A DNA stretch of 64,000 bases from a virus (lineage: Duplodnaviria > Heunggongvirae > Uroviricota > Caudoviricetes), in IMG/VR virus record IMGVR_UViG_3300050026_000241; one strand, 5' to 3'. Made by a program: the position numbers and the translations under genes. This document shows, piece after piece, positions 2,496-55,114 of this stretch. Below the pieces are notes generated by a model. It worked only from the letters and a program-made list of their open reading frames with translations. It made no database searches and was not told where the DNA came from. The first letter of the stretch is position 1. The number at the start of each line of letters is the position of its first letter.

Positions 2496-3965
2496 ATGGC
2501 GGTTCGCAACTATCTGGAAATCGGAACGTGTGATTTTGATACACTGAACGACAAGTTCGCTGACCGCGAACATTGGTGTGGTGTGTCTATCGAGGCCGTG
2601 CCGGAGTATTTCAAACGACTTCGCAAGCTGGATAAGAATGAGTACATCAATGCAGTCTGCTTGGTGGAAAAGAATAAAGAGACGTGTGACTTTCATCATG
2701 TTCCCAGTGATGTTATCACCCGACACGGGCTGCCAGATTGGTTGCGTGGCTGCGGGGCTATTGACAAGGCTATCCAGCCGTCGTTGAGAGCCTACGGCAG
2801 ACACGTCATTACGACACGGCTTCCGGTCGTTTCGATTCGGGACGTTCTCAATCGGGACGTTTTCAAAGACCAGATCACCCGAACCATCCGTGTTGACTTG
2901 TTGAAGATTGACACAGAGGGGTACGACCTGGCGCTGCTTAATGCAGTCTTGGATATTACCTGTCCGACGAACATTGTCTTTGAGACGTGGGGCATAAGTC
3001 CGGCCATCTTCCCGATTCTGGAAAAGCGTCTACTCGACTTGGGTTATAGTTGCCGAGGCCGAAGCGGCGATAATGTGCAGTATTCGTTGCCGTCAGTGTT
3101 GATGATCGGTGAGGCAGCCTGGTCCACGGGGTCGATTGCCAAAGACCTGATCCATGCAAGCAGTTGGCATGGCCGATTGTTGAATTGGAACCGATACCCG
3201 AAGGATTTGCCAGCCAGTTTCCCTGAGTACGATGCGGTAGTGATTTTCGGACTACATTCGCCGACCACCTGGTCCGCACTGGCCCCGCACGGTGTCATTT
3301 GCTGCGGCCCGTGTGAATTGCTCACGACGAATACGTGGCGCAATAATACGGGCGGTGCTTTGTGGGGAGGCTGCTTTGGTGCTGTATCGCGGGAATGCTA
3401 CGACGGAGTGAAGGCCGTGGCTACAAAGGACGTGTTCTACACGCCGGCCAGCACCAGGCTATCGAGGTTCACCCGGCGTCCGGCACGAGAAGTCAAGACA
3501 TTGGGTTGGTGTGCTATCAAGGACAGTGCGAAGAATTTTGGCGGCATTGACTTGAAGCGGTTTTCGATGTTCGATGAGATTGCCAAAGCAGCCTGTCTCA
3601 ACTCTCGTGTGTCAGGTCGTGACTTTACATACGATACGATGCAGGACTTCTACGACTCGATTGATCTGCTGGTCTGCACTTCGGTGTCGGAGGGTGGCCC
3701 GTTGCCTGTGTTTGAAGCGATTGCGTGCGGTGTGCCAGTGATCTCGACACCAGTAGGTCTCGTCAAGGAAACAAGCACCATACCGACATTCTCGACGGTT
3801 CCCTACGCCGCGAGTCTTATAGACTCGATACGAAGCTGCCCTGACCAGTACGCTAACGCACAATACAAGGAACTTGAAGGAATGTCAACTGATCGACTTA
3901 TCCGGCATTGGGAAGATTTCTTCGCCGGCTGTGCGAAAGTCAACAAGACGAAAACCTTCCTATAA
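2496..3965 (+). CDS. FkbM-family methyltransferase fused to GT1 (GT-B) glycosyltransferase
   Basis: N-terminal FkbM signature RVDLLKIDTEGYDLALL; C-terminal GT-B motif SEGGPLPVFEAIACGVPVIST. Confidence 0.65.
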   Translation: MAVRNYLEIGTCDFDTLNDKFADREHWCGVSIEAVPEYFKRLRKLDKNEYINAVCLVEKNKETCDFHHVPSDVITRHGLPDWLRGCGAIDKAIQPSLRAYGRHVITTRLPVVSIRDVLNRDVFKDQITRTIRVDLLKIDTEGYDLALLNAVLDITCPTNIVFETWGISPAIFPILEKRLLDLGYSCRGRSGDNVQYSLPSVLMIGEAAWSTGSIAKDLIHASSWHGRLLNWNRYPKDLPASFPEYDAVVIFGLHSPTTWSALAPHGVICCGPCELLTTNTWRNNTGGALWGGCFGAVSRECYDGVKAVATKDVFYTPASTRLSRFTRRPAREVKTLGWCAIKDSAKNFGGIDLKRFSMFDEIAKAACLNSRVSGRDFTYDTMQDFYDSIDLLVCTSVSEGGPLPVFEAIACGVPVISTPVGLVKETSTIPTFSTVPYAASLIDSIRSCPDQYANAQYKELEGMSTDRLIRHWEDFFAGCAKVNKTKTFL

Positions 3966-3968
3966 GGA

Positions 3969-4382
3969 ATGATTGTGAGCAAGAAAAGAACACTCCGACG
4001 CCGGCTGCAAAATGCCTGCCGCTGGTTTCACGACTGCTGGTATTGGATCAAGTGCCGCCTACTTTGTCGTTACAATGTAGTGGTGTGCAGGCCGCTGCCG
4101 CCGACCTGGGTTGACCGTGATTACCTTTTGCTGTTTGCGTCCTTCCAGATTTTGGAAGACTTTGTGGACCGGGAGGAAGGTCACTTTTACGAGAACGTCT
4201 ACCCGCTCTACCTTGACTGCGGCAAGGAACGTGCCCGCGAGGAAGAGCGGGATTGGGACGCAATTCGCAACCTTTACGTTTGGTGGCAGAGTCGTAAGGC
4301 CGACAAGTACGCCGACGATTACGATGAAGACAGCGACATGCTTCACCGACTTATTGACCTGCGGAAATACCTCTGGACCTGA
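3969..4382 (+). CDS. hypothetical protein
   Basis: 137-aa ORF, Trp/Cys-rich N-terminus, acidic C-terminus; operon-coupled. Confidence 0.4.
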   Translation: MIVSKKRTLRRRLQNACRWFHDCWYWIKCRLLCRYNVVVCRPLPPTWVDRDYLLLFASFQILEDFVDREEGHFYENVYPLYLDCGKERAREEERDWDAIRNLYVWWQSRKADKYADDYDEDSDMLHRLIDLRKYLWT

Positions 4383-4391
4383 AAGAAAACA

Positions 4392-5393
4392 ATGAGAATC
4401 CCCAAATCGCTTTCCTATTCGTCGCTCTCGCTGTTTGAAAAAGATTGCGAAGAGTTTTACATGAAGTACCTTGCGGACAAGTCGCCCGAGCGGCTGCCGC
4501 AAGAACCGCCGATGGCCGTGGGCTCCGCGTTTGACGCCTACTGCAAGTCGTCGCTCCATGCCGCCCTGTTCGGGGCCGGAGCCGATCCGCAATTTGAGTT
4601 GGCGACCATCTTTGAGTCGCAAGTCGAACCGCAGTGCCGAGATTTTGCCTTTGAGGCCGGTAAGCATGTTTTTGAGTGCTATGTGTTGTGCGGGGCCTAC
4701 GACGAATTGCTGTCGCTCTTGAAGCAAAGCACCGAGCCACCGCGATTCGAGTTCACGGTAAAGGGAACCATCGGCGGCGCACCGTTCTTGGGTAAGCCTG
4801 ACTGTCGGTTCGTTCTCGATCTCGGTCAGGGACGCATTAGCGTGGTGTTCGACTTCAAAGTTCATGGCTACTGCTCCAAGTATGGGGCGTCCCCGACGAA
4901 GGGCTACCGGCTGTGCCGCGATGCCTATAAGACGGACAAGCCGAGCCGCTCACACATGACGGCGCACAAGAACTACCTGGGCATGGATTACCGGGGCATG
5001 GAGATCAACAGCGGCTATATGGAGTATTGCGGAAAAGAATACGCTGACCAGCTTTGCCTCTACGGCTGGCTGCTGGGCGAACCTGTCGGCGACGAGAATG
5101 TCATCATGGCCTTGGACGAGGTTGTGGCGAAGTATATGGGCGAAGGCAACAAGCCTCTGCTCCGCGTTGCCAACCATATCGGCCGCGTGAGCAAGGCTCA
5201 CCAGGACGCGCTCGTGAAACGGGTCGAGAAGTGTTGGGCCGCGATTCAGAGCGGCCATATCTTCCCCGAGATGTCGCTGGCCGACAGTCAGAACCGGCAG
5301 TCGATTCTCGATGAAATGTCCGGTGCCCTGTTGACGGACGGTTCGGTCAAGGACGATTTCTTCGTCGATTGCGTGCGGAGTCCCAAATGGTAA
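4392..5393 (+). CDS. putative PD-(D/E)xK nuclease-family protein
   Basis: N-terminus SYSSLSLFEKDCEEFYMKYL resembles Cas4/RecB-like nuclease N-termini; VFDFKVHGY supplies a (D/E)xK. Confidence 0.45.
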   Translation: MRIPKSLSYSSLSLFEKDCEEFYMKYLADKSPERLPQEPPMAVGSAFDAYCKSSLHAALFGAGADPQFELATIFESQVEPQCRDFAFEAGKHVFECYVLCGAYDELLSLLKQSTEPPRFEFTVKGTIGGAPFLGKPDCRFVLDLGQGRISVVFDFKVHGYCSKYGASPTKGYRLCRDAYKTDKPSRSHMTAHKNYLGMDYRGMEINSGYMEYCGKEYADQLCLYGWLLGEPVGDENVIMALDEVVAKYMGEGNKPLLRVANHIGRVSKAHQDALVKRVEKCWAAIQSGHIFPEMSLADSQNRQSILDEMSGALLTDGSVKDDFFVDCVRSPKW

Positions 5394-8516: not shown

Positions 8517-9262
8517 GATACTTACTCATCTTACTGATCTTTCTTGTCGGCTGCGAGGCCCCGGCCGAGACGCCCGCCCCGCTGCCGGTCGTGGTCGTAG
8601 AGCCTGCCTGGACGCACTACGCCCCTGTCCGAACGGTGCGAGACAGGGGACCAGTGTTGGACGACATTGACTCACATCTGCCCGCTGGCAACGTCTACAC
8701 ACGCGAATCTGACCCCGTTACGGCGTGCCACGAGGGTACTCACGGTGTCAACAGCGACTTGCGGCAAGCCTATCACAAGGCAGGGTTCTATGTCCTGAAC
8801 GACCGGGCCGTCTTGATCGACAACCCGGTCATTACGCTAACGGCCGTGGCCCGTGAGGTTCCGGCCAGCCTACGGGGTTTCAACTATCGGCTGTATTTCG
8901 TCCAACAACTTGCCGACTGGAATGAGCATCCGACATACCCCTTTGACGAGTGGTGTGCTTACACTAACGGAGCGGAAGCCCGGCTGCGGCGGAACATCCC
9001 CGACAGAGACGACACGGTTCAATTCGCCTTAGAATTCGTACCATATAGTATCTGTGTCGCCAAGGCGGCACATGACGCCGGGCTGCCGGATGACCCTCAA
9101 ATGAAAGCGTTCATTCAGTGGCAGGCCGAGCGGTGCATTCGGCTGGGAGGCGAAATTAAGCAACCTCTGCCGAACATGACGGCGGCCGATGCCGCCAGCT
9201 TCCGCGACTTTTGCCACCTTTACTTTGGTGCCCCTTGGACCCTCAAGAATCTAGGTTTCTAA
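8513..9262 (+). CDS. lipoprotein
   Basis: MRYLLILLIFLVGC signal peptide with lipobox. Confidence 0.55.
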   Translation: MRYLLILLIFLVGCEAPAETPAPLPVVVVEPAWTHYAPVRTVRDRGPVLDDIDSHLPAGNVYTRESDPVTACHEGTHGVNSDLRQAYHKAGFYVLNDRAVLIDNPVITLTAVAREVPASLRGFNYRLYFVQQLADWNEHPTYPFDEWCAYTNGAEARLRRNIPDRDDTVQFALEFVPYSICVAKAAHDAGLPDDPQMKAFIQWQAERCIRLGGEIKQPLPNMTAADAASFRDFCHLYFGAPWTLKNLGF

Positions 9263-9522
9263 TGCGATTTCAAACTTGTCCGAACGTCATTGTCGAAGAG
9301 AATCGAATCTGCCTGACACGTATCCGCTGGGAAAACGGCGTCGTCGGCAAGGGCGGCTATTCCGCCAAGTTGAGCCTGTCCCTGTGCTTTGATTGGAGAA
9401 GCCTGTGGGTAGGCTTATTCATCAAGCGGCGGCACCACGGCTTCTATGCTTGGCTTTGCCTACTGCCCTGCCTGCCCCTCCGTATCTCGTTTCAGCGGTC
9501 CTATGGCGGCATCTTCCCCTGA
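9262..9522 (+). CDS. hypothetical protein
   Basis: ATG overlapping upstream TAA. Confidence 0.4.
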   Translation: MRFQTCPNVIVEENRICLTRIRWENGVVGKGGYSAKLSLSLCFDWRSLWVGLFIKRRHHGFYAWLCLLPCLPLRISFQRSYGGIFP

Positions 9523-9854: not shown

Positions 9855-10045
9855 TGCTTCTTGATGAAGTCCTGTTAAACGACCGGCAAGTCCGGCCACG
9901 ACAAAAGTTCGACGGCTACGCCCACAACGAGACTGAGGCTGCCGTCGCCGCCCGTCTCGCTGTCTTGGAGGCCCGAGACCCTTCACAGAAGAGGCCGACG
10001 CCGAAGCGGAACGCCAACGCCAACGTCGATTGGATTGACCTATGA
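9845..10045 (+). CDS. hypothetical protein
   Basis: ATG inside track ORF 9818..10045. Confidence 0.35.
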   Translation: MQIMLLDEVLLNDRQVRPRQKFDGYAHNETEAAVAARLAVLEARDPSQKRPTPKRNANANVDWIDL

Positions 10046-10212
10046 GGTTACATGTGGAGAACCATTTGAAATACGTCACCAACTACAAAGCGGCCCTGGA
10101 TGAAGTGCTAGGAAGGCTGTCGCTTCCTTACGCCGATCTGGTGTCGGCTGCTGAACCGTCGTCTGTTTCACTTACCCCGTTCGAGTCCTTAGAAATTGGA
10201 GAGTTCGCATGA
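10042..10212 (+). CDS. hypothetical protein
   Basis: 56-aa ORF with ATGA overlaps at both ends; not in track; approximate. Confidence 0.25.
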   Translation: MRLHVENHLKYVTNYKAALDEVLGRLSLPYADLVSAAEPSSVSLTPFESLEIGEFA

Positions 10213-10433
10213 GTCAAGACTTTATTGGACGAGCCATCGCGGCCGGAAACACCATTGTCTATCCTGTCCGTCGTGGCAGCAAAATGTGGCTGAACAAGTT
10301 GGCCGTCACGCAAGTCGATGACGACCATATCACCGGGTTCAACAGCGACGGCCGCCGTATCACGGTGAAAAATCTCAAGAATTGCGTCGTGGTTGAACCG
10401 CTGCCCGTCGTGGACGGCGCTGCCGGCCTGTAA
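10209..10433 (+). CDS. hypothetical protein
   Basis: 74-aa ORF. Confidence 0.4.
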   Translation: MSQDFIGRAIAAGNTIVYPVRRGSKMWLNKLAVTQVDDDHITGFNSDGRRITVKNLKNCVVVEPLPVVDGAAGL

Positions 10434-10449
10434 ACACGGAGGTTTCATC

Positions 10450-10647: not shown

Positions 10648-10692
10648 TCGTAACGATTATACCTGCCGGAGCAATGCTCCGGCAGGCACAGC

Positions 10693-10720
10693 TTGACTTC
10701 TGGCCAAACTATGGTATATA
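10693..10720 (+). promoter_or_regulatory. sigma70-like promoter cassette
   Basis: TTGACT-N16-TGgTATATA; ATG 10728 ~7 nt after -10 (leaderless). Confidence 0.55.
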
Positions 10721-10727
10721 TTAAGAT

Positions 10728-11648
10728 ATGGAATTCATTCGCACGAAGAAGCGCGGTCAAAGTGCAAAAACATATCGCACTTGGCTCGCTGACGACGACT
10801 ACAGGATTGTATGGCGTAAGGAAGCGTTCGGCGTCGAAATGACGCCGGCCTACATGGCGTGTGTTAAGGTCATGGTTCCTAACGTCGGACAGGATTGGTA
10901 CACAACGCCCGAACTAGAGCGCGGCAAGCCGAAGTCCGCCGTCATGTGGGACTTCGTTGACCCGGCCCGCCACCTGCAAAAGAAGCTGAAAACCGCGCAA
11001 GAGACGTGCGAAAAGCACAAACGGCTCTGGACTAAAGCCTGTGACACCACGGGCATTCGCGGCATCATTGAACTTTTCGGTAAGGTGCCGTCTGCCGTGC
11101 CGCTGTGGGTGAAGAGCAAGCTACCCAAGAAAGTACTTGAAGTTCTCACCCGGCCGCCACACCTTTTTTACGAGGATGAAGAGGAATGTCAAGCACCTAC
11201 GCTGCCGGATGGCCCCGAAACAAGCCAGTCCGACCCTATCGCAATCTCTCCGACTTTGTTTCAAAATACCAATACCTCTCCAAGCGAGAGTGGCCCTGTC
11301 TCGCCTGCCGAGGCCGAGGATGGGACTACGACCCGGAAGACCCGGAAGACCCGGAAGACCCACCGTGCCCGGTCAAAGGGAACCGAGGTCGAAACACCAT
11401 CCCCTGCGCCGCCTGCGGAGGCACCGGCGAAGGCACCGGCGAAGGGAGCCGGCCAGCACCTGCTGGATTCTACTGCGCCGCCTGCGGAGGCACCGGCGAA
11501 GGGACGAAAGCCGCGTGTGTCAAAGCCTACCGGGAAGCCATCCAAAGGTTCAAAGCGGAAGCCGACGACTACAAAAGGCTCGCGCAAGTCCGCAAAGAAC
11601 TCCGCGAAGGGCTCTCGAAAGAGCAAATCCGCGCCATCAAAGAACTAG
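10728..11648 (+). CDS. hypothetical protein with basic K/A/P-rich low-complexity tail
   Basis: first gene led by the cassette promoter (ATG at TSS); frame ambiguous after ~11186. Confidence 0.45.
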   Translation: MEFIRTKKRGQSAKTYRTWLADDDYRIVWRKEAFGVEMTPAYMACVKVMVPNVGQDWYTTPELERGKPKSAVMWDFVDPARHLQKKLKTAQETCEKHKRLWTKACDTTGIRGIIELFGKVPSAVPLWVKSKLPKKVLEVLTRPPHLFYEDEEECQAPTLPDGPETSQSDPIAISPTLFQNTNTSPSESGPVSPAEAEDGTTTRKTRKTRKTHRARSKGTEVETPSPAPPAEAPAKAPAKGAGQHLLDSTAPPAEAPAKGRKPRVSKPTGKPSKGSKRKPTTTKGSRKSAKNSAKGSRKSKSAPSKN

Positions 11649-11656
11649 GAATTTAA
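11186..11656 (+). CDS. alternative overlapping ORF, Cys-rich (CxxCxGxG x3)
   Basis: GAGGA 5 nt upstream of ATG; CLACRGRGW, CAACGGTGEG twice; non-low-complexity C-terminus. Confidence 0.3.
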   Translation: MSSTYAAGWPRNKPVRPYRNLSDFVSKYQYLSKREWPCLACRGRGWDYDPEDPEDPEDPPCPVKGNRGRNTIPCAACGGTGEGTGEGSRPAPAGFYCAACGGTGEGTKAACVKAYREAIQRFKAEADDYKRLAQVRKELREGLSKEQIRAIKELGI

Positions 11657-11731: not shown

Positions 11732-11759
11732 TTGACTTCTCCGAATCAGATGGTATACT
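11732..11759 (+). promoter_or_regulatory. sigma70-like promoter cassette
   Basis: TTGACT-N16-TGgTATACT; ~65-nt leader to ATG 11824. Confidence 0.55.
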
Positions 11760-11823
11760 TGAATAGTCTTTGAGATAGTGCCATTACGGTATTAGTCCTG
11801 AGACAACACCTTTGGAGAGTACT

Positions 11824-12315
11824 ATGAAAACCGCCGACTATGAATCCTTAGCAGAGGCCGAGTTCTACATCTATGCCTACTTTGACGAGAAGGATGTGCC
11901 AATCTACATCAAAGCTGGCCGTGGCGACCAGGCTCATTCGCACATTCAAGGATGTCAGGCGGTATTCCGTGACAACAATTCGCCGGCTTTCTACCGGAAA
12001 CTCCGCGACATGCTTTATAAGAATTTGAAGCCGACTGTCCGCATCATTGCCGAGAATCTGACACAAGTTGAAGCGTTTGAAGTGTGGGAAGATTTCTTCA
12101 TCCAAGCCATCGGCCAACAAAGACTGGGCACCGGCCCGCTGCTGAACGAACACTTGAACGGCGACGGGGATGCTCAGGAACTTCACCCGCGCGTGGCACG
12201 GCCGCAACAACTCGCACACGCGCGCCCACATCGTACCCCGGCACGTTCCACCGTTCGACAGCAGCTTGAAATCGAATGGCAGACCGATTTGCAGACCGAA
12301 TTGCTGGCAACGTAA
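11824..12315 (+). CDS. GIY-YIG-like domain protein
   Basis: FYIYAYFDEKDVPIYIKAGRG resembles GIY...YIG; cassette promoter ~90 nt upstream; Arg-rich tail possibly over-extended. Confidence 0.4.
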   Translation: MKTADYESLAEAEFYIYAYFDEKDVPIYIKAGRGDQAHSHIQGCQAVFRDNNSPAFYRKLRDMLYKNLKPTVRIIAENLTQVEAFEVWEDFFIQAIGQQRLGTGPLLNEHLNGDGDAQELHPRVARPQQLAHARPHRTPARSTVRQQLEIEWQTDLQTELLAT

Positions 12316-12422
12316 TCATCCGGCAGTCCAAACGCGCCAAGGTTGGCGATGCTGCCGGGTGGCGAGCGCCTTCTTGCGAGACTCGTCACCACCCGGCAGC
12401 AATTCGACTGTGACCACACACA

Positions 12423-12617
12423 ATGCAAAAGACAGACCGTTTGAACCAACTGATCGCGGACATTCGCCGCGAGGCCCCGCACGTCGGCAAGAAGCCGTAC
12501 AGCCACAACATTATCCGAACCGCTTTGAGTATCATCGCCGACGAGTTTGGCGTCGAGGAAGCCAATAAGGTCGTCCGAAAACTCAGGCTGCATCGGAGAG
12601 GATTCAACGAAGAGTAA
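12423..12617 (+). CDS. hypothetical protein
   Basis: 64-aa ORF. Confidence 0.4.
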   Translation: MQKTDRLNQLIADIRREAPHVGKKPYSHNIIRTALSIIADEFGVEEANKVVRKLRLHRRGFNEE

Positions 12618-12621
12618 TTCA

Positions 12622-12924
12622 ATGACGAGTAAAGCCAAGGCAACAAAACTGTCGGACCCGACGCCGTTCAGAACAGTGGCGGACGAGCGAATCTCAAAAC
12701 GCACAAGCGAAAAGCAAACCCTACAAACCCTGCGTGAACAAGTACAAGCGGGTAAAAGTGACGCCAAGGTGAAGGCAGTGCTCGCCCAGATCAAGAGCAA
12801 GTTTGGGGACGCCGCCTTCGAGAAAGAACTTCGCGCCTACGCCGTGACCAAGGCCGGCGTCAAAGGTGCGCAAGACGTGAGGCTACCGCCCGGCGTCAGC
12901 CCGAATGTGGGAAGGAACAAGTAA
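12622..12924 (+). CDS. basic small protein, PARAKKLD/KFGD family copy 1
   Basis: array of 5 tandem paralogs; shared N-terminal K..ARAKKLD-like and QIxxKFGD[AE][EA][YF] motifs. Confidence 0.5.
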   Translation: MTSKAKATKLSDPTPFRTVADERISKRTSEKQTLQTLREQVQAGKSDAKVKAVLAQIKSKFGDAAFEKELRAYAVTKAGVKGAQDVRLPPGVSPNVGRNK

Positions 12925-13211
12925 TGGGCAAGGCACGCGCAACACGACTCAACCGGCAAGTGCCCTTGAAGCTGGCGACAGACAGCCAAGCAAAGAAGGC
13001 CGCCGAACAGGCGACAAACAAGGCCCGAATGAAGGCGATGGGCAAGCCGGCAACCAAGGAAGAAAAGCTGAAACTGGCTGTCGCCCAGATTCATGCCCGA
13101 GACTCGGAAGCCTTCAAGCAGCACGCCGAGACCAGGAACGACATGCCGGCTCGCGGCATCGACAAAGTTGGTTTCATACCCAACGACCCCTCAATGGCAA
13201 AGGTAAAGTAA
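12924..13211 (+). CDS. basic small protein, family copy 2 (divergent)
   Basis: MGKARATRLN..., LAVAQIHARDSEAFK. Confidence 0.45.
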   Translation: MGKARATRLNRQVPLKLATDSQAKKAAEQATNKARMKAMGKPATKEEKLKLAVAQIHARDSEAFKQHAETRNDMPARGIDKVGFIPNDPSMAKVK

Positions 13212-13498
13212 TGGGGAAGAAACCAACACCGGCGAGAGCCAAGAAGCTCGATACGAGCGTACCGATGCGGGGCAGAAGCGTCGGTATCGAACCGCCAAAG
13301 ACTGGCCGCCCGCTGCCAGCAACACCCAAGGCAGGGCCGGCGAAAGCCACTAGCAAGGATGCCGCGCTGCAAAAGATTCGTCAGAAGTACGGCGAAGACG
13401 AGTACCACAGGGCGCTGGACGAATACCAGAAAACCTTCCGTGGTGAGCAGCGAACCAACAGCGAGATTCGCAACAAGGATAACAGCCATGCGAAGTAA
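13211..13498 (+). CDS. basic small protein, family copy 3
   Basis: KKPTPARAKKLD; QKIRQKYGEDEY. Confidence 0.5.
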   Translation: MGKKPTPARAKKLDTSVPMRGRSVGIEPPKTGRPLPATPKAGPAKATSKDAALQKIRQKYGEDEYHRALDEYQKTFRGEQRTNSEIRNKDNSHAK

Positions 13499-13823
13499 AC
13501 CGCAACCAGCGCGAGCCAAGAAGCTCGATATGACACGACCGCTGCATACTGTGCCGGCCCAAGCCGACAGGTCTGTGCCCAAGGCAGACAAGCGGACAGT
13601 CCGCAACAAGACCGAACTCGCTGCCTTGCGTGAGCAAGTGAAGCAGGCGGCGGCCACAGAGGGCGGCCGTCAGAGTCAAGCCGCCAAGCTGGCTCTGGGC
13701 CAGATCGAGGCCAAGTTCGGTGACGCCGAGTACCGCAAAGCCATGCGTGAGAACAACTTGACGTACAAAGGGCATCAAGACATGCCCATCAACGTCCTGC
13801 CTGGAAAGGGGCCGGTCCAATGA
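13488..13823 (+). CDS. basic small protein, family copy 4
   Basis: KPQPARAKKLD; LAALREQV; QIEAKFGDAEY. Confidence 0.5.
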   Translation: MRSKPQPARAKKLDMTRPLHTVPAQADRSVPKADKRTVRNKTELAALREQVKQAAATEGGRQSQAAKLALGQIEAKFGDAEYRKAMRENNLTYKGHQDMPINVLPGKGPVQ

Positions 13824-14203
13824 GCAAGCCGTCGAGCAAGAAGCCACAACCCGCCAGAGCCAAGAGACTCGACAGAGAAATGCCGCTGCGGGCTACGCGA
13901 ATGGGCGTCGGCCAGCAAGAGTCGCGGCCGACTATTACCAAAGAGGTAAAGCCACCGGCCCAACTCACGGCGTTGCGTGAGAAAATCCGGGCTGAAAACA
14001 GCGGTAAGAATGACAACGCCCGTGCCCGAACAGCGAACGTCCAAAGCACCTTGGAGCAGATTCGAGTCAAGTTCGGTGACGAGGAATACCGCGCGGCCGT
14101 GCAGGATTTCAAGACAGACTTCCGCGAGTTTGACAAGATCAACTTGCTCAGAAATAAGGGGCCTGGGGTGCAACCCAAAGACCACTTGCAAACCCCTCCC
14201 TGA
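13820..14203 (+). CDS. basic small protein, family copy 5
   Basis: KKPQPARAKRLD; LTALREKI; QIRVKFGDEEY. Confidence 0.5.
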   Translation: MSKPSSKKPQPARAKRLDREMPLRATRMGVGQQESRPTITKEVKPPAQLTALREKIRAENSGKNDNARARTANVQSTLEQIRVKFGDEEYRAAVQDFKTDFREFDKINLLRNKGPGVQPKDHLQTPP

Positions 14204-14218
14204 CAACAAGGCCGACAA

Positions 14219-14626
14219 ATGGGCGACAAGATTGCCGACATGCTTGCATCTTTGCAGCAGTATACCGCCAGCATCAAGCTAGGATGCAACCATGCTGCCC
14301 GTATAATCATACTATCACACCGGTTTACAGTCCTGAACGACATCTTCAAGGAAATGAATAGCGCGTTGCTCGTCGAACACGAGTCCGTGAAAGAAATCCT
14401 TGACGCCGGCACCGACCCGCAGCCACCAGCATACGTGGCTTTCATGGCCCATTACGAGGAATTCAAGGTGATCCACAAGCTGATGCAGGATACGGCCAAG
14501 GAAATACAGGAAGAGAAGGGCTTCGTCGATTGGCACATGGACAATGGAATCATGCCGGATTACAACGAGGTCGTGAAGCACTTGAAAGATGTCATAGGGG
14601 AGCAAGGAAACACGAATGTTAATTGA
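14219..14626 (+). CDS. hypothetical protein, paralog pair member 1
   Basis: TDPQPPAYVAFMAHYEEFKVIHKLMQDTAKE aligns with 14616 paralog. Confidence 0.5.
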   Translation: MGDKIADMLASLQQYTASIKLGCNHAARIIILSHRFTVLNDIFKEMNSALLVEHESVKEILDAGTDPQPPAYVAFMAHYEEFKVIHKLMQDTAKEIQEEKGFVDWHMDNGIMPDYNEVVKHLKDVIGEQGNTNVN

Positions 14627-15242
14627 AATTATCACAGTCGAGCAATTCAAGGTGTTGCTGGACTACGACATTGCCGAGAAAATAGCCAATGACCGGCTAG
14701 CCCGCTTAGAGACGCTCAACAACAGAGTCAGCATGTTGGCCGTGTTATACACGGAGCTGTGCCGCAGGCTGTATGTCGAGTGTGAGGATGCCAGGGAGAT
14801 TGTCGAAGCGACAGAGAACCCGCAGGCAACAGCCTACGTTGAGTACGTGTCCCATTACGACGCTTCCAATGTGGTCTACGATCTGATGCAGGAAGCAACG
14901 AAAGAAGCCAATACGGAAGCAAGCTATCTCGCCTGGTTCAAAACAATGACGTTTGACCCCGCATACAAGGCGGCGATAGAATTGATTAAAGGTAAGAGGG
15001 ACGAAGGGACGAAGGGTGAAACAGTGCAAGATATAACGCTAAACGAAGATATAACGGACGCAGCCGAAGATATAACGGACGCAGCCGAAGAAGCCTTAAT
15101 TGAGGAAGTTAAAGGTCTTGACGCCGATGACTTGCTCGATGCTTGCGAGCATGTCCTTGGATTAAATCATCCAGCGACAAAGGCACTGCGTTTTGAAGTT
15201 GAGCGCATCAATGGTGAACATGAAACACCGGGGAGTCTCTAA
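14616..15242 (+). CDS. hypothetical protein, paralog pair member 2
   Basis: TENPQATAYVEYVSHYDASNVVYDLMQEATKE; internal repeat EDITDAAEx2. Confidence 0.5.
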   Translation: MLIEIITVEQFKVLLDYDIAEKIANDRLARLETLNNRVSMLAVLYTELCRRLYVECEDAREIVEATENPQATAYVEYVSHYDASNVVYDLMQEATKEANTEASYLAWFKTMTFDPAYKAAIELIKGKRDEGTKGETVQDITLNEDITDAAEDITDAAEEALIEEVKGLDADDLLDACEHVLGLNHPATKALRFEVERINGEHETPGSL

Positions 15243-16087
15243 TGTGGTTGAATCTATCAACAACCTTTCCCTCTGCTCCGGTGGTGGCGGGCTCGACATC
15301 GGACTTGAACTCGCTCTCGGAGCGGTTCGCACGGTCTGTTGGGTGGAGTGGGAAGCCTTTGCCATCGAGTACATTGCGAAAGCGATGGAAAACGGCGGCT
15401 TGGATAAAGCACCTATTTGGACTGACGTGCGCACTTTCGACGGACGACCCTGGTGTGGCGTCGTGGATAGCATCACTGCGGGCTACCCGTGTCAACCGTT
15501 CAGCTATGCGGGTGACAGACATGGACAGGATGATCCTCGTCACCTGTGGCCACACGTCGCTCGAATCGTTGGCGAAATTAAACCCACACTCGTCTTTCTC
15601 GAAAACGTGTCAGGACACCTTACCCTTGGGTACGATCAAGTCGCTGCCGATCTTGACAAACTGGATTACACAGTTGCGACAGGACTCTTCACAACGTCAG
15701 AAGTTGGCGGAAGCCAAAAACGAGAGCGGCTTTTCACTGTGGCCTGCGCCGGCCGCGACCATGACAACAGGCGAAGACAAGGATGCGAGCTGGGTTCCCG
15801 GTCAGAAGCCGACACGGTGGGGGAAAGTAGTACAAACAGCGTTGACCACCTGTGCCAAGATTTGGATGCGGGACTACCTCTCTTCCCTCCGCGACCGGAC
15901 GACTATGAAACCTGGACCGCCCTGCTCAAAGACACCCAAAACCAAAGGCTCGCCCCTGCGCTTGAACCCGACCTTCACTGGCTGGCTGATGGGATGGCCG
16001 AACTTCGGTTGCACGGCAACGGAGTGGTCCCGCTACAAGCAGCGTATGCGTTCTGCTCTCTGTGGTCTGTTTTGCGAAACGAAGTAG
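15220..16087 (+). pseudogene. DNA (cytosine-5)-methyltransferase split across two reading frames
   Basis: frame of 15220: motif I LSLCSGGGGLD, motif IV GYPCQPFSYAG, motif VI ENV, motif VIII QKRERLF; frame of 15242 downstream: TRD LWPAPAATMTTGEDKD and motif IX-like RLNPTFTGWLMGWPNFG; switch at T4 run ~15731-15734. Confidence 0.55.
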
Positions 16088-16091
16088 CCAC

Positions 16092-17018
16092 ATGAACATC
16101 TTCTACAAACATCCGAGAAGCGGTATGGTTGTTTGGCCCGCTGACTGGACCGACCGCCACTTCAACTGTAATGAACCCTGTGACGTGCTCATCGGTGCGT
16201 GCTCTTGTGGAGCATGGCACAATGAAAACGAAGAATGGGTGCGCCAGATTTTACTCGACCACAACGCAATCATCCTAGAAAGACCTGACATGCCTCTCTA
16301 TTGTCCGAATTGCCGCTCGCAACTCGACCCCACGAATGCCGTTAAGCAGCATATTAGCTGCGCCATGTGCTTCTGGATGGGTATGCTCAAGGACTGCCTC
16401 AAGGAGCTGCCGTCGCGCATCGGGATGCCGTATGTATCTATTGATTTAGAGACAACCGGCCTGAACCCTGATTATTGCCAGCTTCTTGAGATCGGTGCGG
16501 TATACGACGACGGCAGATTCATTGACGAATTACCGGTCTTCCATAAGTACGTCTACAGTCCTGACGGCCGCTATACTGGCGAACCATTCGCCCTGCAAAT
16601 GAATGCAAAAATCTTAAAGCGGCTGTCGAGCATTTCCGAGGCCGATAAACAGAACAAGGTGTGCGTGCGGCCGGATGAAGTGGCCGAGTGTTTCCGTCAA
16701 TGGTTAATTGAAGCCTGTGGGTGGGACGGTAAAACCTGTATCACCCCGGCCGGCAAGAACTTTGCCAGCTTCGACAAGCAGTTTCTCTACCGACTCCCCG
16801 GCTGGACCGAGAAAGTGAAGCTGAACCATAGGACGCTGGACCCGGCCATGCTCTGGTGGAACCCGTTGACGGACGACAGGCTGCCAGGCAGTCAAGAGTG
16901 CATGGACCGCGCCGGGCTCAAGGGCACCGTTGCCCACACCGCCGTCGAAGATGCGGAAGTTGTAGTCAGGCTTATCCGGTTGGCAGTCAGGCAGGGGCGA
17001 GTCAAGTGGAGCGATTAA
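16092..17018 (+). CDS. DEDDh 3'-5' exonuclease (DnaQ-like) with Cys-rich N-terminal domain
   Basis: Exo I VSIDLETTGL; Exo II GKNFASFD; Exo III HTAVEDA. Confidence 0.7.
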   Translation: MNIFYKHPRSGMVVWPADWTDRHFNCNEPCDVLIGACSCGAWHNENEEWVRQILLDHNAIILERPDMPLYCPNCRSQLDPTNAVKQHISCAMCFWMGMLKDCLKELPSRIGMPYVSIDLETTGLNPDYCQLLEIGAVYDDGRFIDELPVFHKYVYSPDGRYTGEPFALQMNAKILKRLSSISEADKQNKVCVRPDEVAECFRQWLIEACGWDGKTCITPAGKNFASFDKQFLYRLPGWTEKVKLNHRTLDPAMLWWNPLTDDRLPGSQECMDRAGLKGTVAHTAVEDAEVVVRLIRLAVRQGRVKWSD

Positions 17019-18282: not shown

Positions 18283-18310
18283 TTGACTTCTGCGGAATAG
18301 CCGGTATACT
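18283..18310 (+). promoter_or_regulatory. sigma70-like promoter cassette (orphan; drives hairpin transcript)
   Basis: TTGACT-N16-cGgTATACT; no ORF before next cassette at 18432. Confidence 0.45.
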
Positions 18311-26387: not shown

Positions 26388-27779
26388 TCAAATGACCAAG
26401 CCAATACCTAGAACAACCCCGCAATCGGCTTTTGCCACTATCCAGGGCGACTTGTCGCCATATTGGAATGACAAGTGCCGCGCGTTGCAATCGCGCCTCT
26501 GGTGCCCAACCGAGAATGATTGCAAAGTGTTGTTCGATTCTTCGGAGTTCATTGAGCGTGTTGCCTCACCGTCTGCCGGAGATTTGTGCCCGTCGTTTGT
26601 ACTTCCCGCTCTATCTGGCGAGCGACCCAAGGAAAAGGAAGTTAGCCGTAAGATAAGGCTCTATCCGAAGAACTTGGAGAAGTGGGAGGAATGTTTGTGG
26701 GCGGCTCGTCGGGCCTACAACCTCGCTATTGAGGCTTTCAAGGAATGGAAGAAGGATGTGCCGAGCGAGGCAGATAACCAATCCGCCTTTCGCCGCTCAA
26801 TCCGTGAAAAGGTAGCGGCTGAATTTCCCGGTGTGCCGCGCGTAATGCTTGACGAAGCGGTCAACAGCGCTTACCTCACACGGCAAGCCATCATTAAGAA
26901 AAGATCGCAAGGTGAGCAATGCGACTTTTCCTTCCGTTGCCGGAAGGACACGAAGCAATCGTTTGTAGTTGAGAGGCTTGCGAACGGTGGGCCGTTTCCA
27001 ACCTTTCTGAAATGCCATCTTACCGAGGCGATTCCGAGCGAATCTGCCGGGAAAATGGCGGTTGTTGTGCGAGAGCATGGTAGATGGTTTCTGACGTGTA
27101 AGGTCAAGGTGCCGGTTGCTGCCGAGAGCCAAGGTAGGAAAACCGTCGCTTGCGACCCCGGCGTAAGAACTTTTCTCGCTACCTACTCTCTTAGTGATTG
27201 TGCGTTTATCGGCCACGGCTTTGCCGCCAAGATACGACCAATGCTCTTGCAGCTTGATAAGTTGCTTGGGCGGCGGAAGTGCTTGAGCAACATCAAGGAA
27301 TGGAAGCAATGTCACCGGGATAGGAACCGTAACTTGCAAAAGCGAATCGACTCGATCTTTTGCAAGGTGCAAGACTTGATGGACGATCTGCACCGGCGTG
27401 CGGCCGATTTTCTCACAAAGAACTTCGACGTGATTTTGCTTCCGACATTTGAGACTTCCGAAATGGTTTCCAAGAGCGCACGCAAAATTGGTAGCCGCTC
27501 CGTCCGGTCGATGCTATCCCTTGGTCACTATCGCTTCAAGCAATTCCTGATTTGGTCGGCCTACAAGCGTGGCAAGATCATAGTGGATTGCAGCGAAGCG
27601 TGGACCACATGCACCGACTCCCGAAGCGGTGTGATTATTGATGTTGGTTCAAGGGAATGGATCAACGGACTTCACAGGGATGTAAACGGCTCGCGGGGTA
27701 TTTTCCTCCGAGCGATGGCGGCTTGAGCCCGAAACATCCCCAGCAAACGCTACAAAATGTTGCGTTTGTTGCGTTTCAA
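26364..27779 (+). mobile_element. TnpB-only transposon-like unit bounded by inverted repeats
   Basis: left TTGAACGCAACAAACGCAACAT (~26364-26385) vs right ATGTTGCGTTTGTTGCGTTTCAA (~27757-27779), 22/23 match; tnpB fills the interval. Confidence 0.5.
26392..27726 (+). CDS. tnpB: TnpB-like RuvC-fold nuclease (IS200/IS605 OrfB family)
   Basis: RKIRLYPKNLEKWEECLWAARRAYN; RuvC-I KTVACDPGVRTF; RuvC-II LLPTFETSEM; RuvC-III HRDVNGSRGI; zinc finger degenerate. Confidence 0.75.
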   Translation: MTKPIPRTTPQSAFATIQGDLSPYWNDKCRALQSRLWCPTENDCKVLFDSSEFIERVASPSAGDLCPSFVLPALSGERPKEKEVSRKIRLYPKNLEKWEECLWAARRAYNLAIEAFKEWKKDVPSEADNQSAFRRSIREKVAAEFPGVPRVMLDEAVNSAYLTRQAIIKKRSQGEQCDFSFRCRKDTKQSFVVERLANGGPFPTFLKCHLTEAIPSESAGKMAVVVREHGRWFLTCKVKVPVAAESQGRKTVACDPGVRTFLATYSLSDCAFIGHGFAAKIRPMLLQLDKLLGRRKCLSNIKEWKQCHRDRNRNLQKRIDSIFCKVQDLMDDLHRRAADFLTKNFDVILLPTFETSEMVSKSARKIGSRSVRSMLSLGHYRFKQFLIWSAYKRGKIIVDCSEAWTTCTDSRSGVIIDVGSREWINGLHRDVNGSRGIFLRAMAA

Positions 27780-54526: not shown

Positions 54527-55090
54527 ATGCAAAACAAAACCATCGCCAAGAAGGTAGACGAAATCGAACGACAGATTAACACCGGCCGTTCTGCCCTGCA
54601 CGCGCCAACGGGCAAGAAGGCCGATTCCGCAATGTTTGACGCCCAGCGTTACGCTATCGGCTTTTCGTACCGGGCAAGAGAAGGCCACCTTACACCGAAG
54701 GGCTTGATTATCAACGCGAACCGTCTAGCCCGCCTGATTGCCGCCGCCCGCCCCACCGTTCCCGCTATCGACGGTATCGCCCTTAACGCCCTTACCCGCG
54801 CCCAAATGGCCGCCAACGCCCTTGCCGCCGCCTTGCTACCGGCCCCGGCCCCGGCAGTAAGCGGGCCGGCGAAACAAGCGACAAAACGACCGACTATGAA
54901 TCAAAACGAATTCATTGTCAAGGCCGATGCCGCGAAAGATCAAGCCCAGGTTTACTTTCGCAACCGGCGTTTGACCCTCCGGCAGTACGGTTGCATACTC
55001 CGTAACATCGGAGCAACCGTCAAGAAGCACGAAACCGAATCGGCCCCGGCAGAAAGCCGCCTTGCCGAGATTTTGCAAAAGTTGACTTGA
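54527..55090 (+). CDS. hypothetical protein
   Basis: 187-aa ORF. Confidence 0.5.
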   Translation: MQNKTIAKKVDEIERQINTGRSALHAPTGKKADSAMFDAQRYAIGFSYRAREGHLTPKGLIINANRLARLIAAARPTVPAIDGIALNALTRAQMAANALAAALLPAPAPAVSGPAKQATKRPTMNQNEFIVKADAAKDQAQVYFRNRRLTLRQYGCILRNIGATVKKHETESAPAESRLAEILQKLT

Positions 55091-55114
55091 CTTCTCCCCG
55101 GCACATGGTATGAT
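55087..55114 (+). promoter_or_regulatory. sigma70-like promoter cassette (doubled -35)
   Basis: GTTGACTTGACT; leader to 55151. Confidence 0.6.

Follow-up and report, generated by a model that had tools for sequence, protein, structure and literature searches.

The subject of this work is a tandem array of small genes in a 64,000-nucleotide stretch of viral DNA (IMG/VR record IMGVR_UViG_3300050026_000241, class Caudoviricetes), which is referred to below, at its full length, as the window. At positions 12622-14203, on the + strand, five open reading frames (ORFs) stand in a row, p1 to p5, and encode proteins of 100, 95, 95, 111 and 127 amino acids (aa). An initial annotation made from the sequence had described five consecutive ORFs of 95-127 aa at this place, and public gene callers made the identical five calls on the near-identical contigs L014-L019 (L numbers denote fetched public loci and P numbers proteins found in database searches). 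The junctions differ from those first described, namely four ORFs joined by ATGA. Only p4 and p5 meet in an ATGA overlap; p1/p2 and p2/p3 are one-base TAATG overlaps, and p3/p4 overlap by 11 nt. With all four junctions overlapping, the layout is compatible with translational coupling and a fixed stoichiometry. The products have isoelectric points (pI) of 10.2-10.4, each with 21-27 Lys+Arg against 10-16 Asp+Glu, and a net charge of about +10 to +11. The region is T-poor (AT skew 0.37 for 12001-14000), and its other frames also contain several ORFs that are long and overlapping.

The copies differ in how fully they carry the motifs that unite them. p1 (12622-12924, pI 10.3) has a degenerate N-terminal motif, KAKATKLSDPTPFR, an LQTLREQV helix, the sequence QIKSKFGDAAF and the C-terminal arm PPGVSPNVGRNK. 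p2 (12924-13211, pI 10.4), whose start overlaps the p1 stop, is the most divergent copy, with ARATRLNRQVPLK and, in place of the KFGD motif, QIHARDSEAF. In p3 (13211-13498, pI 10.2) the full N-terminal motif KKPTPARAKKLDTSVPMR is followed by KIRQKYGEDEY, helix 1 having been deleted. p4 (13488-13823, pI 10.4) is the most conserved copy and the type present in every lineage of the phage group termed clade A below, and p5 (13820-14203, pI 10.35) carries the full N-terminal motif, then the conserved MPLRATRMGVGQQE, and ends with the C-terminal motif INLLRNKGPG. Of the motifs that had been ascribed to all five proteins, the N-terminal block holds for each of them, in degenerate form in p1. The LxALREQV helix belongs only to p1, p4 and p5, being deleted in p3 and degenerate in p2, and the KFGD motif is degenerate in p2 (ARDSEAF).

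Paralogy and anatomy of the p proteins

Composition-corrected BLASTP (composition-based statistics, database size set to 1e6) paired p4 with p5 at E = 4e-10, p1 with p4 at 2e-8, p3 with p5 at 3e-8 and p3 with p4 at 3.5e-5; the pairwise similarity of p2 to the other copies was not significant. When a profile built from four copies was scored against the fifth, p1 to p5 obtained 36.6, 23.9, 34.6, 60.1 and 40.9 bits, respectively, and the best of 1000 shuffles per protein reached 8.4-12.6 bits (p1, 12.6; p2, 11.0; p3, 8.4; p5, 11.1). Since the leave-one-out scores lie far above the shuffles, the paralogy extends beyond composition, and compositional bias, the outcome that the initial annotation had named as fatal to the grouping, does not account for the similarity. 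Judged by these comparisons, p1-p5 are true paralogs and not compositional look-alikes. No tandem DNA repeat was found in the array, where a residual DNA identity of 66-81% is seen only over the conserved motifs.

The array is also one gene longer than the five copies first counted. A sixth, divergent member, p0 (12423-12617, + strand, 64 aa), lies directly upstream and comprises the helical core and a terminal acidic NEE(P) tail, but no basic N-terminal arm. The p0 ortholog profile aligned with the family profile at an hhalign probability of 91.8% (E = 7.4e-7, 62 columns), over the helical core and an EFGxxEA turn. The ORF gave consistent weak profile matches in related loci, lies upstream of the array in L001, L002, L005, L006 and L008-L010, and has a ratio of nonsynonymous to synonymous substitution rates (dN/dS) of 0.08-0.15 against L004-L006. 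The locus is by this evidence a six-gene family, p0 plus p1-p5, with no public name. No additional copy turned up when the 64-kb window was translated in six frames and scanned with a profile. At 9248-9462 of L001, p0 is spread over two frames (9248-9355 and 9340-9462), which reflects either a frameshift error or a pseudogene.

The anatomy of the proteins was taken from alignments of 38 and 54 members. An N-terminal arm with the consensus [KR]x0-6-PARA[KRT][KR]L[DN]xxxP[LMF][RK] is followed by a variable linker and then by a core made of a helix (LxALREQ[VI]K), a loop, a helix (ALxQIxxKFG), a turn and a further helix (DxE[YF]xxAhxEF). The C-terminal arm reads [FY]xGxxxxN[LV]LxNKGPG or takes a paralog-specific variant. 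The family is thus recognised by a core with a [KR]FG[DE]xE[YF] turn, an ARAx[KR]L[DN]xxxP[LMF] arm and an NxxxNKGP-like arm, the exceptions being the degenerate turn of p2, the missing helix 1 of p3 and the missing N-terminal arm of p0.

Structure prediction, which had been proposed as a check on the array, yielded low-confidence models of a generic three-helix bundle with no informative structural neighbour; searches of structure libraries found none beyond generic helical bundles. AlphaFold2 modelled p4 with helices at residues 35-57, 64-77 and 79-88 (predicted local distance difference test score, pLDDT, 60) and p5 with helices at 47-60, 67-85 and 87-106 (pLDDT 67). The ends are unstructured in both of these low-confidence models, which show regular structure neither in the first 34-46 nor in the last 21-23 residues. 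In four of the five orthogroups described below, the conservation of both arms nevertheless equals or exceeds that of the core, the exception being the C-terminal tail of p2. Mean pairwise identity in the p5 orthogroup is 72% for the N-terminal motif, 86% for the C-terminal motif, 50% for the core and 29% for the linker, and the p1, p3 and p4 orthogroups show a similar pattern. That arms predicted to be unstructured are conserved in this way points to their folding on binding a partner; such conservation would be typical of segments that fold onto a partner, unlike that of simple charge-neutralising tails.

Relatives, orthogroups and selection

The profile and database searches that the initial annotation had called for did find relatives, none of them with a meaningful name. 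From 5.8 billion proteins 40 homologs were retrieved, mostly on small metagenome contigs. When 1.84 billion cluster representatives were searched exhaustively with HMMER, 26 matches were obtained at E <= 1e-3, at least one of which is spurious (P0050, a match to translated repeats). P0056, a short-repeat protein, is probably no true relative, and the label "predicted Zn-dependent protease" attached to P0027 found no support. A second, word-indexed homolog search with a wider alignment added nothing informative. By these counts the family is small and narrow.

Known families offered no name either. Pfam and PHROGs returned only noise for p1-p5, for the 38 aligned members and for distant members. 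Weak matches to ribosomal protein S20 (E = 0.037), Orf78, DUF3138 and a Fis-type helix-turn-helix (E = 0.088) were rejected as compositional; for bS20 (PF01649) p4 scored best, with 15.1 bits (E = 0.037) where the Pfam gathering threshold is 29.5, and only 2 of the 38 members matched at E <= 1. A profile search of PDB sequences gave nothing below E = 0.41. Among 50,697 GenBank phages no match was obtained by tblastn with p4 and p5 (E <= 1) or by megablast with 10 kb of sequence surrounding the locus. No relatives came from scans of viral contigs in IMG/VR or of GTDB genomes, and a literature search returned nothing relevant. The family is therefore described here as new and uncharacterised, while a tandem set of small basic phage proteins is familiar as a kind.

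The 40 public homologs sort into five orthogroups that match p1-p5. Orthologs of p1 are P0015, P0017, P0023, P0025, P0027, P0033 and P0040; those of p2 are P0006, P0007, P0012, P0014, P0030 and P0031, together with L026_a from a second phage group, clade B; and those of p3 are P0001 (identical to p3), P0003, P0009, P0011, P0013, P0029 and P0034. Copies of the p4 type are found in L001, L002, L007-L012 and L020. The orthologs compared at the codon level share 57-98% protein identity. In comparisons with L004-L006, at a synonymous divergence (dS) of 0.55-1.3, dN/dS was 0.02-0.16 in 14 of 15 cases. By copy it was 0.11-0.40 for p1, 0.06-0.08 for p2, 0.07-0.12 for p3, 0.02-0.08 for p4 and 0.07-0.09 for p5, and p4 gave 0.10 against L007. 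These ratios indicate that every copy is under purifying selection.

Copy number ranges from two to five, and is never one, in the lineages examined. Five copies occur in the window and in L004-L006, four in L002 (p2-p5, the orthologs being 57-66% identical to those of the window) and three in L020 and in L021/L022. L001, a 372,948-bp contig, and L008-L012 have two, one of the p4 type and one of the p5 type. Such a distribution indicates that the duplications are older than the split between these phages and that every copy has since been retained as a gene of its own. The repeated local duplication proposed at the outset is in this way supported, with the addition that, from the five orthogroups and the low dN/dS, the duplications are ancient and each copy is conserved. 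In L003 (ENA ERZ25039544 contig_47139, 10001-10437) the sequence breaks inside p2 and continues as the reverse complement of p2, and bacterial genes for ThiF, rhomboid and FtsK follow this fold-back. An inference of the host from these bacterial genes was rejected, since the assembly looks like a fold-back chimera.

Genomic setting and transcription

The window holds about 125 small genes, nearly all on the + strand. Recognisable functions include a glycosyltransferase/FkbM methyltransferase, N6/N4 and C5 DNA methyltransferases, a DnaQ-like exonuclease, Thg1, a TnpB-like protein, a radical SAM enzyme and an HNH nuclease; no tRNA or Rfam families were found in it. Together with L001, L002, L009/L010, L020 and L021/L022 the window forms clade A, in which the exonucleases are 49-70% identical to that of the window. 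The genes of clade A follow a common order: N6/N4 methyltransferase, Zn-ribbon protein, CxxCxGxG zinc-finger protein, p0, the p array, acidic small proteins (a Zn-ribbon "z" family and/or a "d" family), DnaQ-like exonuclease and FkbM-type methyltransferase. By this order, the array has a fixed position in a DNA-metabolism module of a single lineage of very large phages.

The exonuclease gene (16062-17018, + strand) encodes a DnaQ-like 3'-5' exonuclease (PF00929 RNase_T, E = 2.2e-9; phrog_192, E = 2.6e-15). phrog_192 is named DNA polymerase exonuclease subunit, and the match in Cobetia phage Carin-5 carries the same annotation. Orthologs of the exonuclease start within about 1 kb 3' of the array in L001, L002, L009, L010, L020 and L021/L022. 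The exonuclease finds its best GenBank phage matches in uncultured phages (595 and 484 kb), after which come Cobetia phage Carin-5 and Sphingomonas phage PAU, and L020 carries genes for ribosomal protein S21 and peptide deformylase and a sigma-factor-like gene. These matches and the gene content of L020 fit a very large uncultivated phage. In the window a C5 methyltransferase gene has been inserted before the exonuclease gene. Two ORFs in different frames, 15193-16095 and 15242-16087 (+ strand), overlap almost fully there: the 300-aa frame is the C5 DNA methyltransferase (PF00145, E = 4.6e-30; phrog_363, E = 1.1e-48), and the other, of 281 aa, is the one annotated by public callers and has no family match.

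Directly downstream of the array lie two acidic tandem paralogs on the + strand, d1 (14219-14626, pI 5.1) and d2 (14616-15242, pI 4.3), which are 31% identical to each other (E = 4e-20) and have no Pfam or PHROG match. Orthologs of d follow the array in L001, L002 and L009/L010, and elsewhere this position is taken by an acidic Zn-ribbon protein plus one d gene. On the upstream side, the CxxCxGxG zinc-finger-repeat protein (11186-11656, + strand, 156 aa, in the frame called by public gene callers) has orthologs of 42-49% identity directly upstream of p0 and the array in L001, L002, L009, L010 and L020. All three + frames are open at 11186-11648, and a 306-aa ORF with a Lys/Pro/Ala-rich tail (10728-11648) overlaps the zinc-finger gene; public callers place no gene at 10648-11185. 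Between the zinc-finger gene and p0 stands a lineage-specific gene with its own promoter (11812-12315, 167 aa). It may be an inserted homing-endonuclease-like gene, because it matches phrog_5356 weakly and, over a short length, a NUMOD3-containing gene of L025. Farther downstream, the TnpB-like protein is encoded at 26392-27726 (phrog_506 transposase, E = 5.7e-23; Cas12f1-like TNB domain, E = 1.1e-4).

The window holds 31 copies of TTGACTTC-N11-13-TGnTATnnT, a sigma-70-type -35 element with an extended -10, all on the + strand, where 0 were expected from 100 shuffles. The copies are near-identical, with the sequence cTTGACTTCT-N9-CACATGGTATGATtgagta. The sites span 10693-61827 (for example, 55087-55114), lie just 5' of gene starts and reach their highest density, almost one per gene, between 33 and 62 kb. 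The copy nearest upstream of the array is at 11732-11759 (+ strand; TTGACTTC-N12-TGGTATACT), the next one upstream is at 10693-10722 and the next downstream at 18283. The array therefore lies within a promoter-free stretch of about 6.6 kb and probably shares a transcript, started at a host-type promoter, with the methyltransferase and exonuclease genes, which points to early or middle expression of the array in this phage. In the related lineages no such promoter was found within 10 kb of the array, save in L020, where one stands about 1 kb upstream.

Gene 11812-12315 and p0 are separated by a 107-nt spacer (12316-12422), in which the RNA of the + strand is predicted to fold into a long and stable hairpin structure (12323-12411) without a U tract. 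Its minimum free energy is -48.5 kcal/mol (z = -4.0), and 1 of 200 shuffles folds as well. Processing, stability or attenuation are possible roles for this predicted structure.

A second context is provided by clade B (L025 and L026), an otherwise unrelated phage group with three family members, among them L026_a, which belongs to the p2 orthogroup (44% identity to p2, E = 2e-21). The clade-B members come directly after an Hc1-like head closure protein (phrog_161, a weak match at E = 1.4e-3) and a conserved protein of about 185 aa, and their neighbours give DUF4376, Gly_rich_2, Laminin_G_3 and tail-fibre-like matches. The L025 locus (3078-4455 of ENA ERZ25039466 contig_113746) lies in a tail-fibre-rich region. 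Apparent fusions of paralogs, namely P0051 (271 aa) and a 189-aa double-domain ORF in L025, were dropped from consideration: L025 shows signs of frameshifts, and since the genes are separate in L026, the fusions are probably sequencing or assembly artefacts.

Candidate functions of the array

The reading that we tentatively favour, as the leading candidate at a level short of probable, is that the array encodes proteins which are produced together, associate with DNA as a probably heteromeric set and dock through their conserved arms. This function was derived from charge, architecture and gene neighbourhood, without homology to any characterised protein. On such a reading, the p proteins would be made together, probably early, by the host RNA polymerase; their helical cores would mediate association, and their conserved basic arms would fold onto a common partner, either DNA or a specific protein. 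The resulting set, probably heteromeric, could coat, organise or protect the phage DNA, or alternatively assist the replication and modification enzymes encoded beside it. Two groups resemble the family in small size, a pI above 10, basic Pro/Ala/Lys-rich tails and a small oligomerising core: nucleoid-associated and histone-like proteins of bacteria (HU/IHF, H1-like Lys/Ala/Pro-rich tails) and DNA-condensing core proteins of viruses, for example adenovirus protein VII. A bolder version seems quite unlikely, namely an unrecognised multi-subunit system for organising or protecting DNA, in which subunits supplied in fixed proportions would assemble through their cores and grip DNA, or the replication and modification machinery, with their arms. 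If true, very large phages would have a chromatin-like apparatus of their own, with no relation to histones, HU or known internal proteins.

Several observations weigh against a DNA-associated heteromer. The clade-B genes stand in a structural-looking module and not beside replication genes. The promoter at 11732 directly precedes the inserted-looking, lineage-specific gene 11812-12315, and with relatives that, L020 apart, have no such promoter near the array the case for early expression is indirect and applies to this phage only. The heteromer itself is conjectural; the apparent fusions of copies in L025 are probably artefacts. The conservation of the arms includes one acidic position and several hydrophobic ones, a sequence-specific pattern that fits docking to a specific protein better than non-specific coating of DNA. 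Finally, no known DNA- or RNA-binding family or fold was matched, and searches for HU/IHF, histone-fold and other nucleoid-associated families gave no profile or fold match. The initial suggestion that such arrays encode DNA-binding, histone-like or internal virion proteins is accordingly neither borne out nor overturned by family matches. Its internal virion part has the sigma-70-type promoters and the DNA-enzyme neighbours against it and the clade-B module in its favour.

Foremost among the alternatives, although rather unlikely, is that the p proteins are internal virion proteins, packaged and possibly ejected, in which the N-terminal motif would direct them to the capsid or mark them for processing, and the basic bodies would neutralise packaged DNA or act in the cell after ejection. 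The T4 internal proteins IPI, IPII and IPIII are small and basic, some are encoded side by side, and they have a conserved N-terminal peptide in front of bodies that differ. The N-terminal motif common to the diverged p1-p5 is a likeness to them, as are their basic charge and small size. The main support for packaging comes from clade B, where the family follows the Hc1-like protein and the protein of about 185 aa among structural-looking genes, although the Hc1 match is weak. In this phage, however, the array lies among methyltransferase and exonuclease genes behind sigma-70-type, not late, promoters. Its strong purifying selection is also unlike the fast evolution of the T4 proteins, with which the family has no detectable sequence relationship. 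A regular expression for the N-terminal motif matched only family members in six-frame translations of the window, L001, L002, L010, L020, L021 and L023-L025. With the motif absent from unrelated proteins in these loci, the defining feature of a T4-like capsid-targeting signal, its presence on unrelated cargo, is not seen there; the structural genes of the phage lie outside the window. No significant PHROG family of known internal or ejection proteins was found with p1-p5 or with distant members. The inner-body proteins of phiKZ-like jumbo phages, too, are a paralogous family that arose by local duplication and is used together. They are, however, several times larger and are encoded among structural genes, and the p family has no PHROG or structure-library match.

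It appears improbable that the p proteins are host-takeover or anti-defence adaptors, whose N-terminal peptide would dock onto one host machine (RNA polymerase, the replisome or the ribosome) while the bodies diversify the effect or the target variant. In keeping with such a role, short and strongly conserved terminal motifs in predicted unstructured regions act in the manner of linear docking motifs, early-type promoters and small uncharacterised genes occupy the region, and the family is restricted to a narrow phage group. Against such adaptors, dN/dS is very low and the orthogroups remain stable at an ortholog identity of only 57-66%, which argues against diversification in an arms race. 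The fixed place in the DNA-metabolism module suggests a core, not an accessory, function, and PHROGs and Pfam gave no match, the PADLOC defence library not having been searched.

The neighbouring exonuclease gene brings to mind the theta subunit of DNA polymerase III (HolE) and HOT of phage P1, small three-helix proteins of which theta binds the epsilon proofreading exonuclease. By analogy, the p proteins could be accessory subunits of the DnaQ-like exonuclease or of the phage replisome, which we regard as very unlikely. In every clade-A lineage examined, the array starts upstream of the exonuclease gene and stops no more than about 1 kb short of it, the core is predicted to be a small three-helix bundle, and p0 corresponds to a bare core of about 64 aa. 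Unlike theta and HOT, however, the p family is multi-copy and has long basic arms, and five or six paralogs exceed what such a role would need. No sequence match to theta/HOT was seen among the Pfam families listed (25 of 31, E <= 1), clade B has the family with no exonuclease within the 13.9 kb available, and the link to theta is one of analogy. The notion that the genes are chance ORFs of a T-poor stretch, their similarity being a product of Lys/Arg/Ala-rich composition, for which the strong T-poverty and the long overlapping ORFs in other frames could be cited, is refuted by the shuffle controls, the composition-corrected E values, the low dN/dS in the named frames, the independent calls on public contigs and the occurrence of orthologs in many metagenomes.

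The evidence so far points to no surprising mechanism, and the finding will have limited practical value as long as neither a host nor a cultured relative is available. Small uncharacterised genes abound in very large uncultivated phages, and among them this locus is unusually well defined: the p family is multi-copy and strongly conserved, has testable motifs, stands beside replication and modification genes and is without relatives among cultured phages. With its five orthogroups and their motifs, it provides an annotation handle for this phage lineage. If the proteins are packaged, the N-terminal motif would be a new capsid-targeting signal. If the favoured reading of a heteromeric DNA-associated complex is true, the family would add a new means by which phage genomes are organised or shielded.

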